Shown here piece after piece: positions 11,060-23,498 of a stretch of 64,000 nucleotides of DNA. Source of the DNA: an uncultured Brachyspira sp. (GTDB lineage: Bacteria > Spirochaetota > JAAYUW01); contig CAZOPR010000008.1 of assembly GCA_964581895.1 (NCBI GenBank), positions 15,903-79,902 of the forward strand, written 5' to 3'. Under the pieces are notes generated by a model. The model did not search any database. It was not told where the DNA came from and worked only from the letters and a program-made list of their open reading frames with translations. The first letter of the stretch is position 1. The number at the start of each line of letters is the position of its first letter. The translations under genes and the position numbers were made by a program.

Positions 11060-11089
11060 ATTGAAGGGGGTAGGAATACTCCCTTCAAT
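11060..11089 (+). terminator. 13-bp GNRA-loop hairpin between rplL and rpoB (terminator/attenuator or processing site)
   Basis: ATTGAAGGGGGTA-GGAA-TACTCCCTTCAAT with one G-U pair; weak U tract. Confidence 0.65.
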
Positions 11090-14696: not shown

Positions 14697-17600
14697 ATGA
14701 GTATTTTTGATAATATTAAGATGATTTCGAAAATTCAGCTAAAGTTAGCTTCTTCAGATGTTATAATAGAACAATCTTATGGTGAAGTAAAAAAACCAGA
14801 AACAATAAATTATAGAACATTAAAACCAGAAAAGGATGGACTTTTCTGTGAAAAAATATTTGGAACTACAAGAGATTACGAATGTTCTTGTGGGAAGTTT
14901 AAAACTAGAAAATATGAAGGTGTTGTGTGTGATAGATGTGGAGTTCAGGTAACAGATTCTAAGGTTAGAAGATATCGTTGTGGCCATATTGTTTTAGCTT
15001 CTCCTGTTGCCCATATATGGTATTATAAAACTACACCTTCCAAAATAGCTTTGGCTCTTGATGTAAAAAATAAAGATTTAGATTCTGTACTTTTCCATGA
15101 AAAATATATTGTAATAGATCCAGGTGATACAGATTTAAAAGAAAAGGAAATTTTAACAGAAAAAGAATATGAAGAAGCTTTAACAAAATATGGTTCATCT
15201 TTTAAGGCACAAATGGGAGCAGAAGCGATAAAGGAACTTCTTTCAGAGATAGATATTGACTATGAAGTCCAAGTCCTTAGAAGAATGATGATTGAGAAAG
15301 ACAAAAAGGCCGATAAAAAACTTTTATCAAGACTTGCTTTGCTTGAAGATTTTAAGAAATCTGGAAATAAACCAGAATGGATGATATTAGATGTTGTACC
15401 TGTTATTCCTCCTGATTTAAGACCTATGGTGCAGCTTGACGGAGGTCGCTTTGCTACTTCTGACCTAAATGACCTTTATAGAAGAATGATTCATAGAAAT
15501 AATAGACTTAAAAAATTACAAAGAATGAAAGCTCCGGATATTATTGTAAAAAATGAAAAAAGATTACTACAAGATGCTGTAGATTGTCTTTTTGATAACT
15601 CAAAAAGAAAAAGAGCAGTAAAAGGACCATCAAATAGACCATTAAAATCAATATCAGAAATCTTAAAAGGAAAACAAGGAAGATTTAGACAAAATTTGCT
15701 TGGTAAAAGAGTTGATTATTCTGGACGTTCAGTAATAGTAGTCGGTCCTAACTTAAAGATCTATCAAGCAGGCGTTCCAAGAAAAATAGCGCTCGAGCTT
15801 TTTAAGCCCTTTGTTATAGCAAAACTTAAATCAGAATATAATTATACAATAAAAAGAGCAAAAGATGCAATAGAGCATGGAGAAAAAGAAGTCTGGGATG
15901 TTCTTGAATCAATTGTAGATAAACATCCTGTTTTATTAAATAGAGCTCCTACATTACATAGATTAGGATTTCAAGCTTTTGAGCCAAAATTAATAGAAGG
16001 CTCGGCTATTCAATTGCCACCACTGGTTTGTCATGCATACAATGCAGACTTCGATGGTGACCAGATGGCTATTCATATCCCATTATCGGTAGAGGCTCAG
16101 ATTGAATGCTGGATTCTAATGCTATCTGCAAAAAACTTACTTGACCCAGCTAATGGAACCCCAATATCTTGGCCTACAAAAGATATGGTTTTAGGGGTTT
16201 TTTATCTTACAAAAGAAGATACAAGAATAAAAAGAGAAAAAATTAAATTTTTTAACAATTTAGAAGAGATTGAATATGCAATCCAGTTCAATGAGATAAT
16301 GTACAATGAACAAATTCTTTATTATTTTAATGACCAATGGATAAAAACCACTGCTGGAAGAGTAATATTTAATAACATTTTGCCTCCTTCTATAAGATTC
16401 ATAAATGAAGCAATGTCTGAAAAGAAACTTAAAAATCTTATTGCCAAAATTATAGTTCAGGAAGGTATTTTTGCAGCAGGAGATTCTTTAGATAAAATTA
16501 AAGAATTAGGTTTTTACTATGCCACCAGATTTGGTTCTACAATAAGTGTATCTGATATCATAATACCAGAAGAAAAACATAAAATTATTGCATCAACTGA
16601 AGAAAAGGTTAAGCAATATCAAAAAGCGAAACAGGATGGAACTATTACTGAAGAAGAAAGATACAATGAAGTCATTAAACTCTGGGATAAAGCAAAAGGC
16701 AAAATTCAGCAAAAACTTAAAAACACTATAGAGCAATTTGATAGTGGAATTAACCCTCTTAATATATTAGTTGAGTCTGGAGCAAGAGGAAATATCAGTC
16801 AGGTAGTTCAGTTGGCAGGTATGAGAGGTAACATGTCTACTCCTTCTGGTAAAATTATAGATATTCCTATCAAGTCAAACTTTAAGGAAGGCTTATCTGT
16901 TTTTGAATATTTTATCAGTACTCATGGAGCAAGAAAAGGTTTAACAGATACCGCCCTAAAAACTGCTGATGCTGGTTATCTTACAAGGAAATTAGTTGAT
17001 ATTGCTCAAGATGTTGTAATAACTGAAGAGGATTGTAAAACAATAAATGGTATTTATATTGAAAGCATTAAGGAAGGTGATGAAATAAAGGTTTCTCTGG
17101 CACAAAGAATAACTGGAAGATTTTGCCAGGAAAAAATATATCATCCTATTACTAATGAATTAATTGTCGATGTCAATGAGTATATAGATGAAGAAAAAGC
17201 TCTACTTATAGAAAGATTGGGTATTAAAAAAGTAAAAATAAGATCTGTTTTAACATGTGAATCAAGGTATGGTGTATGTGCAAAATGTTATGGTCAAAAT
17301 TTAGCTACAGGTTCGATTGTAGATATAGGAGAGGCTGTAGGTATTATTGCAGCTCAATCTATAGGTCAACCAGGAACCCAGCTTACAATGAGAACTTTCC
17401 ATATTGGAGGTATTGCTTCATCAGGTGAAGGAATTGAAGCTGAAAGAAGATTTAAAAACCCTGTTTACATAGAAAGAATTTTTGGAACAACACATAAAAA
17501 TGAGGAAAATGAGAATTTATTATTCTTAAGAGATGGCCAAATTATTATAAGAGAAATTTTTAAAGATATTACGAATACATGTGCAAGCAAAATTGAAGTT

Positions 17601-18908
17601 GTAGATGGTATGAAAGTAATACCAGATACTATTTTAGGTTATGATGAAAATAATAAAGTTGTAAAATCAACTCATATCGGTATTACTAAAAAAGTTGGAC
17701 ATCATTTATATTTGATGGGTGATGAAATTTCTATAGACGCAAGAACTGGAAGTGTTTTTTATGGAAAAGAAAATGAGATTTTCGCAGCAGATAAAACCTT
17801 ATTAGAAACAGATATGCATAATGATATTACTCTTGCAGAAAATGAAGGGATTGTCAAATTTGAAAATGTAATACTAAATGTTAATGCAAAGCAGATTGAG
17901 GGAGGATACTTAAAAATCGCCCAACTTTTAAATGATAAAAGACAACCAAAATTATATATTTGTGATAAAAATGATAAAGATAAGATATTAACAACGTACC
18001 ATTTACAATCCAAATCTATTATAACTGTTAAAGATGGTGAAAAAGTTAAAGTTGGAGATATTATAATCAAACTTCCAAAAGAGAAAACAACTCAGGAAGA
18101 TATTGTTTCCGGTCTACCTAAAGTTACTTCTTTATTTGAAGCAAGAAAGCCAAAGAAAAAAGCAATTTTAGCTCAAGTTGATGGAATTATAAAATATGGA
18201 GAATCAAAAAGAACTAAGAAAGTTATTCTTATTGAAGATGATTTTGGTAAAATTTATGAGCATCTAATTCCTGGTTTTATGAATGTAAAAGTTAGAGAAG
18301 GAGACAGGATTAAAGCTGGTACCCCCCTCACAGATGGTGAACCAGATCCTTATGATGTTCTTTCGATAAATGGAATATTTGAATTCTCTGCTTATTTATT
18401 AAATGAGATTCAAAAAGTTTATCGAGAACAGGGAGTAAATATAAATGATAAGCATATTGCTATAATTGTTAGGCAGATGACTAAAAAAGTAACAATTGAA
18501 GAAGTAGGAGATACTAATTTTGTATTGAAACAGATTGTTGATAGAGAAGAGTTCTTTGATGTAAATGATAGGGTTATAAAAGAAGGAGGAGTTCCTGCTA
18601 AAGCATCTCCTGCTCTTGAAGGGATCAAAAAAGCTGCTCTTGGAAGATCCTTTTTATCTTCTGCTTCCTTCCAGGAAACAACAAAAGTTTTAACCAATGC
18701 AGCTATAAGGGGAGAAACAGATTATCTAAGAGGATTAAAAGAAAATGTTATTATTGGACAAAGAATTCCTGCTGGAACTGGAATAAGAAATTATAAAAAT
18801 ATAAGAATTTATGATAAGCAAAAAGGCGATATTGAATTTAACATTGATGACATTTTTAAATCATCTATAAATAAAAGTTTTTTTCCAGAATCAGATAAAT
18901 TTGGTTAA
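14697..18908 (+). CDS. rpoC: RNA polymerase beta' subunit
   Basis: [10 protein letters not shown] catalytic motif, Zn finger, [11 protein letters not shown] trigger loop with a lineage-specific insert. Confidence 0.99.
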
Positions 18909-18939: not shown

Positions 18940-18969
18940 TAAATTCCATGTGCAAAGGAGTTAATAAAA

Positions 18970-19347
18970 ATGCCTACTATCAATCAATTAATTAGAAAAG
19001 GAAGAGAAAAAGTTACCTACAAATCCAAATCTGTTGCCTTAAAAGGTTGCCCTCAAAGAAAAGGTGTATGTACTCGTGTATTTACAATGACTCCAAAGAA
19101 ACCAAACTCTGCTTTAAGAAAAGTAGCCAGAGTTAGACTTACAAATGGTTATGAGGTAACAGCATATATACCAGGAGAAGGACATAATCTTCAAGAACAT
19201 TCAGTAGTCTTGATTAGAGGTGGAAGAGTAAAAGACCTTCCTGGAGTTAGATATCATATTATTAGAGGAACTTTAGATACACTTGGTGTTGAAAATAGAA
19301 AAAGTTCGCGATCTAAATATGGTGCTAAGAATACTAAAAAATCATAA
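18970..19347 (+). CDS. rpsL: 30S ribosomal protein S12
   Basis: [29 protein letters not shown]. Confidence 0.99.
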
Positions 19348-19367
19348 AAATTTTTCCGGGAGTTATC

Positions 19368-19838
19368 ATGAGTAGAAAGAAAAAAAGAATAGATAGACCA
19401 TTAGAATTAGATTTTAATTATAAAAATCAAGAAATTTCAAAGTTTGTAAATTATTTAATGTGGGATGGCAAAAAGAGTGTTGCTCAAGCAGTCATTTATG
19501 ATGCTTTAAATGTTATTAAAGAAAGGTTAAATGAAAATCCAGTTGATGTTTTTCATCAAGCTCTTGAAAATGTCAAACCTATAGTTGAAGTTAGGTCAAG
19601 AAGAATTGGTGGTTCAACATATCAGATACCTGTTGAAGTTCCATCATACAGACAATTTTATCTTGCTTGTCATTGGATAATTACTTTTGCAAGATCAAGA
19701 AATGGCAAAAGCATGGCTGAAAAACTCGCTAATGAAATAATTGATGCCTATAAAAATCAGGGATCATCAATAAAGAAAAAAGAAGATACACATAAAATGG
19801 CAGAAGCAAATAGAGCTTTTGCTCATTTAAGATGGTAA
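19368..19838 (+). CDS. rpsG: 30S ribosomal protein S7
   Basis: VEVRSRRIGGSTYQIP, HKMAEANRAFAH. Confidence 0.99.
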   Translation: MSRKKKRIDRPLELDFNYKNQEISKFVNYLMWDGKKSVAQAVIYDALNVIKERLNENPVDVFHQALENVKPIVEVRSRRIGGSTYQIPVEVPSYRQFYLACHWIITFARSRNGKSMAEKLANEIIDAYKNQGSSIKKKEDTHKMAEANRAFAHLRW

Positions 19839-19850
19839 TTTATTATCGAT

Positions 19851-19931
19851 TGCGTGCGCTGGAGAAAAGATTTTTTATCTTTATCTGACTTAAATTCTCA
19901 AAAGTAATTTAAGTTATTACTCCATCACGCA
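19851..19931 (+). ncRNA. Candidate structured cis-regulatory RNA (three-way junction) between rpsG and fusA; family unknown
   Basis: Nested stems TGCGTG/CACGCA plus TGGAG/CTCCA, AAAGAT/ATCTTT and GACTTAAATT/AATTTAAGTT. Confidence 0.55.
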
Positions 19932-20048
19932 TTCTTTGTATACTATTTTAATTTATCAATTTATTAATTTTACTTTATTTGCGTTAAGCTTGTAAAGTTT
20001 TTTATATTTTTTATTTAATACTTTTATTGAAAATTGCAGGAAAAGGAT

Positions 20049-22115
20049 ATGACTGAGAAGATTTCTTTAGAAAAATATAGAAATATTGGAATAATGGCTC
20101 ATATAGATGCAGGTAAAACTACAACCACTGAAAGAATTCTGTTTTATACTGGTAAAACATATAAAATAGGTGAAGTTCATGATGGTGCAGCTGAAATGGA
20201 TTGGATGATCCAAGAAAAAGAAAGAGGGATAACAATAACTTCAGCAGCAACAACTACTTTCTGGCTTGGACATAGAATAAATATAATTGATACTCCGGGA
20301 CATGTTGATTTTACAGCAGAAGTTGAAAGATCTCTTCGAGTTTTGGATGGAGCTTTAGCGGTTTTTTGTGCAGTCGGTGGAGTTGAACCACAAAGCGAAA
20401 CTGTATGGAGACAGGCTAATAAATATAAAGTTCCGAGAATCATATATGTCAATAAAATGGATAGAGTCGGTGCAGATTTTTTTGAAGTAGAGAAACAGGT
20501 AATTGAAAAATTAGGAGCAAAACCCGTCATTATTCAACTTCCAATTGGTAGTGAATCAAATTTCAAAGGTGTTATTGATTTGGTAAAAATGAAAGCAATT
20601 ATATGGGAATCATATGAAAGCAATTCCCCTTTTAATGAGCAAGAAATTCCTGACGAATATAAAGATATTGCAGAAGAATATAGAGAAAAATTACTTGACA
20701 CAGTATCAGAGCAGAATGATCTGGTTTTAGAAAAATATCTTTCTGGCAGTCAAATTTCTGAAGAAGAACTAAGAAAGTGTATAAGAAAAGGGACAATATC
20801 AATGGATTTTTATCCTATGATATGTGGATCTTCTTTTAAGAATGTTGGTATTCAGACTATGCTTGATTCTATTGTATACTATTTACCTTCCCCTTTAGAT
20901 ATTGCAGATGTTGAAGGTGTTCAACCAAAAACAAGAGATATTATAAAAAGAAAAGCTATCGAAACCGAACCTTTTTCGGGGCTTGCTTTTAAGATCATGA
21001 GTGATCCTTATATAGGAAAGCTTACATTTTTAAGAATATATTCTGGAAAAATTACCCAGGGAGATGAAGTATATAACTCTTCCAAAGAAAAAAATGAGAG
21101 AATCGGAAGAATTGTTTTAATGCATGCCAATAAAAAAGAAGAGATAAAAGAAGCAGCTGCTGGAGATATTGTCGGACTTATAGGAATGAAAAATACTCAA
21201 ACAGGTGATACTTTGTGTTCTCATCATGCACCGATAATACTTGAATCAATGGATTTCCCGGATCCAGTAATATCTGTAGCTATTGAACCGAAGACAAAGG
21301 CTGAGTATGATAAATTATCTATAGCTCTCGGAAAATTAGCTGAAGAAGATCCAACATTTAAAATAAATGTCAATGAAGAAACAGGGCAAACAATAATTCG
21401 AGGGATGGGAGAATTACATCTTGAAATAATTGTTGACAGAATAAAAAGAGAGTATAAAGTTGAGGCGAACATTGGAGCACCACAGGTTGCATACCGTGAA
21501 ACCATTCAGAAAAAAGTCAAATCTGAAGGTAAATACATAAGGCAATCAGGTGGGAAAGGCCAATATGGTCATGTAATAATTGAAGTTGAACCTCTTGAAA
21601 GAGGTAAAGGCTTTGAATTTGTAGATAAGATAGTTGCAGGAAGAATTCCAAAGGAATTTATACCTTCTGTTAAAAAAGGTATTGAATCAGCAATTGAAAA
21701 TGGAGTTCTTGGTAGCTATCCCGTTACAGACATACGTGTTAACTTGCTTGATGGTTCTTATCATGAAGTTGATTCTTCGGATTTAGCCTTTCAGATTGCA
21801 GCATCGATGGCTTTCAAAAATGCTTGCAAAGAGGCAGATCCAGTTCTTCTTGAACCAATAATGGCATTGGAAGTTATCATTCCAGAAGAATACCTTGGCG
21901 AAGTTATGGGAGACCTGAATAGCCGCAGGGGTAAAATTCATGGAATGATCGATTCGGTTAGTGGAAAAATCATAAAAGCCGAAGTGCCATTAAGTTCAAT
22001 GTTCGGTTACGCGACAGTCTTGCGCTCAAAGACACAGGGAAGAGGAACTTATACTATGATGTTAAGTCATTATAATGAAGTTCCACAATCCATTTTAAAA
22101 GAAATATTAAAATAA
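20049..22115 (+). CDS. fusA: Elongation factor G
   Basis: [37 protein letters not shown]; AAGGA RBS before ATG 20049. Confidence 0.99.
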
Positions 22116-22164
22116 TTTTTTCTTATTTGTATAACAATAAGAATTTTTTGATTTTATGGATAAC

Positions 22165-22186
22165 AAGACAATTGTATTGTCTTTTT
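22165..22186 (+). terminator. Short hairpin with U tract after fusA
   Basis: AAGACAAT-TGT-ATTGTCTT followed by TTT. Confidence 0.45.
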
Positions 22187-22280
22187 AAATAAAAATGTTA
22201 TTGATTTTTATCAACCAGAAAAAAATAGTATTATGGGTTGATAAACATCTATTTTTTTATTATTTGAGGAGGAAATAAAA

Positions 22281-23498
22281 ATGGCAAAGGAAAAGTTTAA
22301 TCGAACCAAACCACACATGAATGTTGGTACTATAGGACATGTTGACCATGGTAAAACAACACTTACTTCTGCTATAACAAAATATTGTGCTGCATTAGGA
22401 AGAGCTGTCGCTAAAAAATATGATGAAATCGATAATGCTCCAGAAGAAAAAGCAAGAGGTATTACAATCAATACTCAGCATGTTGAGTATGAAAGTGAAA
22501 AAAGACACTATGCTCACATTGACTGCCCAGGGCATGCTGACTATATTAAAAACATGATCACAGGTGCTGCCCAGATGGATGGAGCAATACTTTTAGTTTC
22601 AGCAAATGAAGGACCTGAAGCTCAGACAAGAGAACATATCCTTCTTGCTAGACAGGTAAATGTTCCTTCAATAATTGTTTTCTTAAACAAGGTAGATATG
22701 GTTCCAGATCCAGAGCTTGTTGATCTTGCTGAAGAAGAAACTAGAGAACTTCTTACAAAGTATAATTTCCCTGGTAAGGAAATTCCTGTAATCAGAGGTT
22801 CTGCTTTAAAAGCTATGGAATATGAAGGAAATGATGTAAATTCTGAACCTTGGAAACCTATTGCTGCACTTTTAAAGGCAATGGATGAATATTTCCCAGA
22901 TCCTGTTAGAGATCTTGATAAACCTTTCTTAATGCCTATCGAAGATATATTCTCAATCAAAGGTAGAGGTACTGTTGTAACAGGTAGAGTCGATAGAGGT
23001 AGAATAAGAGTTAATGATAAAGTTGAAATCGTAGGTTTTGGTGAAACAAAAGAAACAGTTATTACTGGTGTAGAAATGTTTAGGAAAGAACTTGATGAAG
23101 GTTTAGCTGGAGATAATATCGGTCTTCTTTTAAGAGGTGTTGAAAAAGAAGAAGTTGAAAGAGGTATGGTTATAGCTGCTCCAAAAAGCATAACTCCTCA
23201 CAAAAAATTTGTTGCTCAGGTTTACATTCTTTCTAAGGAAGAGGGTGGTAGACATACTCAATTTGCTGTTGGCTATAGACCTCAATTCTATTTTAGAACA
23301 ACTGATGTTACTGGAACAATTGCAAAAATACAGAATGTTCAGACAAACGAAGAAGAGCAAACAGCTCAACCAGGACAAAACGTTCTTATGACTGTTGAAC
23401 TTATATATACTGTTGCTATGGAAAAAGGCTTAAGATTTGCTATCAGAGAAGGTGGAAGAACCGTTGGTGCTGGAGTTGTTGCAGAAATTATTGAATAA
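22281..23498 (+). CDS. tuf: Elongation factor Tu
   Basis: [37 protein letters not shown]. Confidence 0.99.

Follow-up and report, generated by a model that had tools for sequence, protein, structure and literature searches.

Results

The rpsG-fusA spacer of the str operon

The stretch of DNA analyzed here in its full length of 64,000 nt, to which we refer as the window and in whose positions all coordinates are given, contains the gene order rpoC (14697-18908), rpsL (18970-19347), rpsG (19368-19838), spacer, fusA, tuf and rpsJ; together with fusA, tuf and rpsJ, rplC is among the genes that lie 3' of the element described below. The spacer between rpsG and fusA comprises 210 nt, the rpoC-rpsL spacer 61 nt and the rpsL-rpsG spacer 20 nt (19348-19367). 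NCBIfam equivalog models support the identity of the genes on both sides of the rpsG-fusA spacer, and with it the location given in a preliminary description of this DNA, and also back S12 as the product of rpsL. An ORF of at least 20 amino acids was looked for in the rpsG-fusA spacer and none was found. The features that frame the element are:

19368-19838, + strand: rpsG, ribosomal protein S7 (NCBIfam TIGR01029 rpsG_bact, 211.8 bits); stop codon at 19836-19838
19941-20048, + strand: remaining AT-rich spacer 3' of the element, GC about 0.17, transcribed in some metatranscriptomes
20049-22115, + strand: fusA, EF-G, ATG at 20049 (NCBIfam TIGR00484 EF-G, 1130.6 bits)
Starting at 22281 and 23531, + strand: tuf and rpsJ, 3' of fusA (EF-Tu and S10 NCBIfam equivalogs)

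The str genes are part of a region of approximately 30 kb (8237-38690) in which translation and transcription genes are collinear on a single strand and mostly separated by 20-60 nt. By position, this region comprises secE-nusG-rplKAJL, rpoBC, the str genes and the S10, spc and alpha operons; family models were run for the str genes and rpsJ only, the other names being given by position. Long spacers are found as exceptions at rpsG-fusA, fusA-tuf and rplL-rpoB. The fusA-tuf spacer (22116-22280, 165 nt) contains two AT-rich hairpins followed by U runs (approximately 22121-22150 and 22165-22190), which exemplify the ordinary terminator-like sites of this genome, and a promoter-like TTGATT...TATTAT; given the U-run hairpins and the promoter-like site, tuf probably has a transcription start of its own. 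The rplL-rpoB spacer contains a hairpin at 11060-11089 (AUUGAAGGGGG-UAGGAAUA-CUCCCUUCAAU), the position of which corresponds to that of the E. coli rplL-rpoB attenuator and processing site.

A three-way junction follows rpsG

Both the MFE and the centroid structure calculated by RNAfold contain a three-way junction at 19851-19931 on the + strand, which starts 12 nt 3' of the rpsG stop codon and confirms the junction and the helices P1a, P1b, P2 and P3 that the preliminary description had placed here. The MFE is -24.4 kcal/mol compared to -10.2 +/- 2.4 kcal/mol in dinucleotide shuffles (z -6.0), and none of 200 shuffles was as good, whereas the - strand reaches -20.7 kcal/mol with a z of -3.3. 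The parts of the element, together with their conservation in the seven members that are introduced in the next section, are:

19845-19850, + strand: 5' flank AUCGAU; AUCGA invariant in 7/7 members
19848-19849 and 19933-19934, + strand: possible helix P0, G19848-C19934 and A19849-U19933, invariant pairs added by RNAalifold
19851-19856, + strand: P1a 5' strand UGCGUG; GCGUG/CACGC invariant in 7/7 members
19857-19859, + strand: 3-nt bulge CGC on the 5' side of the P1 internal loop, invariant
19860-19864, + strand: P1b 5' strand UGGAG (RNAfold)
19866-19882, + strand: P2 hairpin, AAAGAU (19866-71), loop UUUUU, AUCUUU (19877-82)
19883-19886, + strand: J2-3, AUCU, semi-conserved (AUCU, AUCC or AUCA in 6/7 members)
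19887-19915, + strand: P3 hairpin, GACUUAAAUU, 9-nt loop, AAUUUAAGUU
19916-19919, + strand: J3-1, AUUA, unconserved
19920-19931, + strand: P1b 3' strand CUCCA, bulged U19925 and P1a 3' strand CACGCA; AUCACGC invariant
19932-19940, + strand: 3' flank UUCUUUGUA; UUC invariant, UUCUWUAUA in 6/7 members

Stem P1 encloses a 55-nt branched insert, and the strands of P3 read GACTTAAATT (19887-96) and AATTTAAGTT (19906-15) at the DNA level. The P0 pairs are present in the MFE fold of every full spacer. As had been described, the element forms a GC-richer island: GC is 0.32 in the element as a whole and 0.65 in the P1 strands with the bulge, compared to 0.17 in the rest of the spacer and 0.29 in the window.

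The designation of the element as an unannotated RNA is borne out by cmscan against Rfam 15, in which it matched no family: at gathering thresholds the whole window yielded two tRNAs only, and the region 19700-20150 at E up to 10 yielded noise only (snoR27, 21 bits). ARAGORN identified no tRNA- or tmRNA-like gene in the element. Readings of the bulged stem as a K-turn, a hammerhead or another ribozyme core were rejected on inspection: the bulge is followed by Watson-Crick paired UGGAG and not by G-A/A-G pairs, and ribozyme cores are further disfavored by the unconserved junction strands.

Two further proposals of the preliminary description fell away. The U-rich tract said to follow the element has 4-6 U in 8 nt, which is no richer than the spacer background (T fraction 0.53), and the alternative pairing of ACGCA with a second TGCGT at 19980 is not retained among the members, of which L001 has TGCTT and the others lack the motif.

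The element is confined to close relatives

In a scan of one genome per species, the closest relative (L001, "MAG: Spirochaetales bacterium AS27yjCOA_89") has an S7 protein that is 95% identical to that of the window and the other S7 sequences are at most 60% identical, which argues that the lineage is deep and poorly sampled. An S7 protein search recovered graded identities of 100, 88, 88, 85, 80, 72, 69, 69 and 68%. The element was found in all seven distinct orthologous spacers in which S7 is at least 85% identical, i.e. those of the window, L001, L092/L093, L094/L095, L101, L091 and L182. These seven members correspond to about five independent lineages; L116 and L119, being identical in sequence to L001 and L091, respectively, add no distinct members. 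The distance to the rpsG stop codon is 12-20 nt among the members and that to the fusA ATG is 85-134 nt.

A metagenome scan with the conserved core gave 101 matches, nearly all of which are coding and lie in GC-rich contigs. A recurrent coding match encodes LRALE...FITPG in a protein that we take to be QueA-like. All low-GC matches sit in the rpsG-fusA spacer; the genuine ones are L116, L119 and L182, and only L182, which lies between rpsG and fusA, is new. The element is absent from four relatives with an S7 identity of 68-72%, of which three have spacers of 10-29 nt and one has a spacer of 227 nt that does not contain the core.

The preliminary description had considered that the element might match a genome-wide repeat family. 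This possibility (a REP- or MITE-like repeat) was rejected: the covariance model described below finds exactly one sense copy in each member locus, no second copy in the 64-kb window and no match in 72 further str loci from many phyla; the P1 halves do not occur elsewhere in the window, and the element was not found in viral contigs.

In the clade with 80% identical S7 (L081-L090), which is common in digester and sludge samples and the S7 of which is listed in 161 assembly-collection blocks, the rpsG-fusA spacer has a length of 557 nt, without an Rfam match or a convincing ORF. It recalls the window element only in TGCGTG...CACGCA (L082 3039-3104 within the spacer L082 2972-3528), which closes an unbranched hairpin 67 nt after the stop codon; a C-to-T variant of this stem in L081 gives a U-G pair that is possible on the + strand only. 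Since the covariance model described below gives 8.9 bits here, which is noise, we left this clade out as members.

P2 and P3 covary around an invariant P1

All seven distinct members yield the same junction when folded singly, and the junction persists in whole-spacer folds. A covariance model built from five well-aligned members retrieves L101 and L091 with 69 and 58 bits, respectively. MAFFT alone misaligned P2 and P3 of these two members. In the seven-sequence alignment A5, which was fitted to the covariance model and so leans toward the structure, 96.2% of cells are paired and compensatory changes occur in 9 of 27 pairs; none of 500 shuffles reaches the observed level, slid controls pair at 37-49%, and RNAalifold arrives at the same structure. 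Thus, conservation and covariation in orthologous spacers, on which the preliminary description had made its proposal depend, are present.

The changes are unevenly distributed. In P3, 7 of the 10 pairs have compensatory changes; this helix is wholly replaced in L091 (UUGGUUU/AAACCAA) and completely rebuilt in L101 as well, and the pair next to the junction, G-U in the window, reads A-U in L182 and L094. The P2 loop varies from 4 to 20 nt and one A-U pair becomes U-A in L101. P1b of L101 reads UGGGG/CCCUA with one compensatory change (A-U to G-C) and one change of G-C to G-U. J1-2 and J3-1 differ in sequence and length between members, and the sequence 3' of the element is unalignable between the more distant ones. 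By contrast, no member departs from the common sequence in P1a (GCGUG/CACGC), in the CGC bulge and the U opposite it, or in the flanks AUCGA and UUC. Near-invariant sequence amounts to 20 nt in the 5' part (AUCGAWUGCGUGCGCUGGRG) and to 15 nt in the 3' part (CYCYAUCACGCWUUC). Because it never varies, P1a has no covariation support of its own. Given that P2 and P3 vary freely while P1, the internal loop and the flanks are fixed, this pattern argues for a recognition site presented on a scaffold and not for a stem that provides stability only.

An invariant inverted repeat such as P1a, next to a palindromic ATCGAT, might also be expected of a chance palindrome or of a DNA-level protein-binding site that is not an RNA at all. 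We regard this explanation as extremely improbable: compensatory changes maintain three nested helices, the G-U pairs are compatible with the + strand only, in agreement with the strand preference noted in the preliminary description and with the z values of -6.0 (+) and -3.3 (-), and the region is transcribed. We conclude that the str operon of this lineage contains a conserved structured RNA that is sense to the operon and restricted to the lineage.

The 3' flank bears on a second explanation, namely that the hairpin and a boxA-like sequence load Nus factors for processive antitermination of the 30-kb ribosomal cluster, in which nusG and rpsJ are both found. The 3' flank of the window, UUCUUUGUAUAC, resembles the boxA sequences of E. 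coli (UGCUCUUUAACAA) and Gram-positive bacteria (UGUUCUUUGAAAAC). The flank is, however, degenerate in L092 (UUCUAUAUAAAU) and L091 (UUCAAUAAAUUU), and such T-rich hexamers are common at 29% GC, making an antitermination function very improbable.

Similarity to ribosomal RNA

The 11-mer GCGCUGGAGAA at 19856-19866 is identical to E. coli 23S rRNA 2625-2635 (L205), just 5' of the sarcin-ricin loop and presumably at the H73/H94 boundary. This 11-mer lies on the invariant core of the element, although only 9 of its nucleotides are conserved in the members. Among shuffles, 4% have an exact rRNA match of at least 11 nt, as do 5.7% of the 96-nt tiles taken from the actual window sequence. Stretches shared with E. 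coli 16S rRNA are 7- and 8-mers only, including ACUCCAU at 1324 in h42, and P1b with the following U (UGGAG/CUCCAU) corresponds to 16S 1308-1312/1325-1330 at the base of h42. The base of h42 belongs to the H29/H30/H41/H42 junction that is covered by S7 (PMC13004024). These matches were rejected as evidence of rRNA mimicry: a 7-mer is expected by chance and the 11-mer has a p of about 0.04-0.06, i.e. chance level. The similarities to E. coli rRNA may therefore serve as leads only.

The 23S match, together with the downstream genes fusA, tuf, rpsJ and rplC, points to partners other than S7, i.e. EF-G, L3 or S10/NusE, and the invariant internal loop could form a pocket for a small molecule, as in a fusA-leader riboswitch. 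Recognition by such a partner is in our view unlikely. The 11-mer does not exceed chance expectation; J1-2 and J3-1 vary between members, unlike the junction strands of junction-type riboswitches, e.g. the purine class; none of the Rfam riboswitches matched; and the narrow distribution of the element is atypical of metabolite sensors.

Transcription into and across the spacer

The RNA data consist of assembled Logan contigs of microbial-mat metatranscriptomes, which do not define 5' or 3' ends for the element. One contig in run X1 spans 18997-20032, from rpsL through the element almost to fusA, and one in run X3 covers 19899-20049. Since both cross the element, transcription extends into the spacer and, on some occasions at least, through the element. 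In seven runs, contig depth, which is a poor measure of expression, is approximately 5-11 over rpsL-rpsG compared to approximately 2-5 over fusA, i.e. about 2-4 times higher, and in three runs from two samples (X2 and X4 from one, X5 from the other) contigs stop at 19833-19836. The drop in depth and the contig ends fit a partial loss of transcript at the spacer.

Ahead of rpsL, contigs of three metatranscriptome runs have their first nucleotide at 18953/18954, and a further contig starts at 18965, where it is immediately preceded by adapter sequence. These positions lie inside the rpoC-rpsL spacer, at a distance of 5-17 nt from the rpsL ATG (18970), and probably mark a 5' end of the rpsL-rpsG message.

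These data are also what would be expected if the element functioned without a ligand, as an unusual branched terminator, a stabilizer of the rpsL-rpsG 3' end or a processing barrier, with fusA and tuf being transcribed in part by read-through or from a promoter of their own in the AT-rich spacer. In addition to the lower depth after rpsG and the contig ends, the anchoring of the element 12-20 nt after the rpsG stop codon, the GC-rich P1a followed by UUC and U-rich sequence, the plain terminator and promoter at the same place in Treponema relatives, and the published 3'-end signal between rpsG and fusA in S. pneumoniae (10.1101/2024.03.18.585559) speak for such a function. On the other hand, the stem of a pure terminator or barrier should covary in the same way as P2 and P3, yet P1, the loop and the flanks keep their sequence; the U content of the tract does not exceed background; the other terminator-like sites in this genome are simple AT-rich hairpins with U runs; and contigs cross the element. 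Moreover, a consensus scan for intrinsic terminators made no call at the element, the P1 stem of which encloses a branched insert and is followed by 4-6 U in 8 nt. We consider a ligand-free structural element, the main rival to the reading proposed below, possible, though on the doubtful side; if the element is merely a structural 3'-end element, it is an ordinary one.

Alternatively, with its compact, very stable and sequence-conserved fold and its location at the 3' terminus of an abundant mRNA, the element could be a trans-acting small RNA, derived from the rpsG 3' UTR or transcribed independently. The conserved nucleotides are, however, mostly paired and offer no obvious single-stranded seed, and no discrete small contig was seen among the metatranscriptome contigs, so that we regard a small RNA as improbable.

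Discussion

Proposed function

Combining the pattern of constraint with the operon context, we tentatively suggest, at somewhat less than an even chance, that the element is a protein-recognized attenuator or 3'-UTR element and that S7 is the prime candidate for its ligand. S7-type recognition is favored by the operon, by an architecture common to two other str-operon RNAs and by the finding that S7 lowers EF-G in E. coli.

In this model, (i) the element would act in cis as a structured RNA of the str operon that is co-transcribed with rpsG, (ii) P2 and P3 would serve as scaffold hairpins, and the functional surface would be formed by P1, including the asymmetric internal loop in which CGC faces U, and by the flanks, with loop and flanks both invariant, (iii) a protein of the translation apparatus, with S7, which is encoded just upstream, as the prime candidate, would bind this surface, and (iv) binding would stabilize P1/P0 and let less transcript proceed into fusA-tuf-rpsJ, through attenuation or through 3'-end formation at the foot of P1. 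Alternatively, the output could be an altered stability of the rpsL-rpsG message, comparable to retroregulation in E. coli. The data show the fold with its conservation and covariation, its strand, its single copy, its constant place beside the rpsG stop codon and transcription of the spacer; protein binding, S7 as the protein and attenuation as the output are the steps that we infer.

Several observations constrain the possible outputs. Given that the distance to the rpsG stop codon is fixed, that the distance to fusA is variable and that the sequence between the element and fusA is unalignable, the element is unlikely to occlude the ribosome-binding site of fusA directly, and because the element overlaps no ribosome-binding site, classical repression by a ribosomal protein does not apply. 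A site located 3' of rpsG and at a distance from all start codons would require a different mechanism. How a site downstream of rpsG would bring about autoregulation of S7 is not obvious. Sequestration of the fusA Shine-Dalgarno sequence by the 3' strand of P2 was also considered and rejected: it is plausible in the window and in L001 and is not in L092, L101 and L091.

If S7 recognizes the element in this way, the str operon of this lineage would provide a case of ribosomal protein feedback by protein-stabilized 3'-end formation downstream of the regulator's own gene instead of by occlusion of a ribosome-binding site. For autoregulatory RNAs of ribosomal protein operons, thorough mapping is limited to E. 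coli and a few other groups, and what takes the place of the E. coli S7 site outside the Gammaproteobacteria is an acknowledged gap (PMC3616713, PMC10931766). The element is a clean candidate, with covariation support, for the role of an S7 site in a deep uncultured spirochaete lineage.

Comparison with known systems

A close parallel in architecture is the rpsL motif of Candidatus Pelagibacter ubique (RF01823, 'rspL'; Meyer et al. 2009), which occasionally precedes rpsG or fusA (PMC2704228). Both RNAs belong to the same operon and consist of a 6-bp P1a, a 5'-strand bulge (UU in RF01823, CGC here) that is conserved in both, a P1b (5-6 bp in the comparison), one bulged nucleotide on the 3' strand and a three-stem junction with P2 and P3 hairpins. 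They come from different phyla and differ in position, RF01823 lying between rpoC and rpsL and ending at the rpsL start, whereas the element lies after rpsG and approximately 100 nt from the next start. Furthermore, RF01823 has a conserved J2-3 (AAC) and P3 loop, whereas J2-3 of the element is AUCN and its P3 loop is unconserved. Homology between the two RNAs was not detected in either direction. The RF01823 model scores 47-84 bits on Pelagibacter loci; on the element it stays below its gathering threshold (37 bits) and gives no match even at E up to 10. Conversely, the covariance model of the element, run with filters off, has no match in RF01823 sites.

The second parallel is the S7 site of E. 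coli, which lies between rpsL and rpsG and consists of a bulged helix and a three-stem junction with 5'-CCA and 5'-UUGGA; its family is described as confined to the Gammaproteobacteria (Fu et al. 2013, PMC3616713). In E. coli, excess S7 represses EF-G (PMC10931766). The element shares with this site a bulged lower helix that leads to a three-stem junction in the str operon and, with both this site and RF01823, a short UGGR/YCCA helix (P1b in the element) that abuts an unpaired loop. The E. coli site is, however, upstream of rpsG and controls coupled translation of S12 and S7, whereas the element is downstream of rpsG and the rpsL-rpsG spacer of the window has only 20 nt. In E. coli, the junction is directly flanked by CCA, on the 5' strand, and by UUGGA, whereas in the element UGGAG is the 5' strand and abuts the internal loop. 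The UGGRG/CYCYA helix has the opposite strand order, and with so short a shared motif the resemblance is not significant. No sequence alignment between the two RNAs is possible. A cmscan of the E. coli locus (L204 783-878, the rpsL-rpsG spacer) against Rfam 15 at E up to 1 gave no match; since the E. coli S7 site itself has no Rfam 15 family, the silence of Rfam on the element is uninformative with respect to S7 sites.

A third system shares the position of the element. In streptococci, a candidate attenuator has been predicted between rpsG and fusA (PMC2965389), and S. pneumoniae has a 3'-end peak between the two genes (10.1101/2024.03.18.585559). The intergenic position and the proposed logic, i.e. 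partial termination before the elongation factor genes, are the same in both cases. As judged by its description, a canonical terminator together with an alternative antiterminator makes up the streptococcal element, whereas the element described here forms a three-way junction for which no alternative fold is conserved.

The element fits into none of the RNA families described so far; elements of its kind are known, and what is new is the family. In this respect the novelty implied by the preliminary description holds for the family, for which Rfam has no counterpart, and is reduced for the kind: structured candidates ahead of fusA have been published for streptococci and Pelagibacter (PMC2965389, PMC2704228), and the same architecture is found in RF01823 and in the E. 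coli S7 site (PMC3616713).

Within the same phylum, the rpsG-fusA spacers of Treponema/Spirochaetaceae (240-600 nt) have a plain hairpin terminator first, followed by a promoter-like site (TTGACA-17-TAGAAT) and then by a long leader of fusA. A conserved block in these leaders, UCCAAACCGAUCAU...RUGRGAUAGGUGGA, encloses one or two variable hairpins (L010 3611-3665, L014 3782-3840, L023 3788-3846, L037 3731-3825, L055 1833-1895, L069 3598-3650 and L017 3500-3620, with a variant in L020). It resembles the element in its location in the rpsG-fusA spacer, in the lack of an Rfam match and in the conserved stem around variable hairpins, and differs from it in sequence and in being placed after a terminator and promoter approximately 200 nt upstream of fusA. 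The covariance model of the element does not match it, and the block looks like a second, unrelated and undescribed fusA-leader RNA in the phylum.

Taking the two leaders together, we offer the broader suggestion that binding of S7 or another protein of the translation apparatus to the rpsG 3' UTR gates transcription into fusA-tuf-rpsJ and that leader control of EF-G has repeatedly been reinvented in the Spirochaetota. As a whole this suggestion is speculative and rather unlikely; if true, control of EF-G by its leader would, in view of the unrelated Treponema block, be general in this phylum. The recurrence of a bulged P1 and a three-stem junction in three unrelated RNAs of the str operon, those of Pelagibacter, E. 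coli and the lineage described here, is a hint of convergent mimicry of one protein-binding site.
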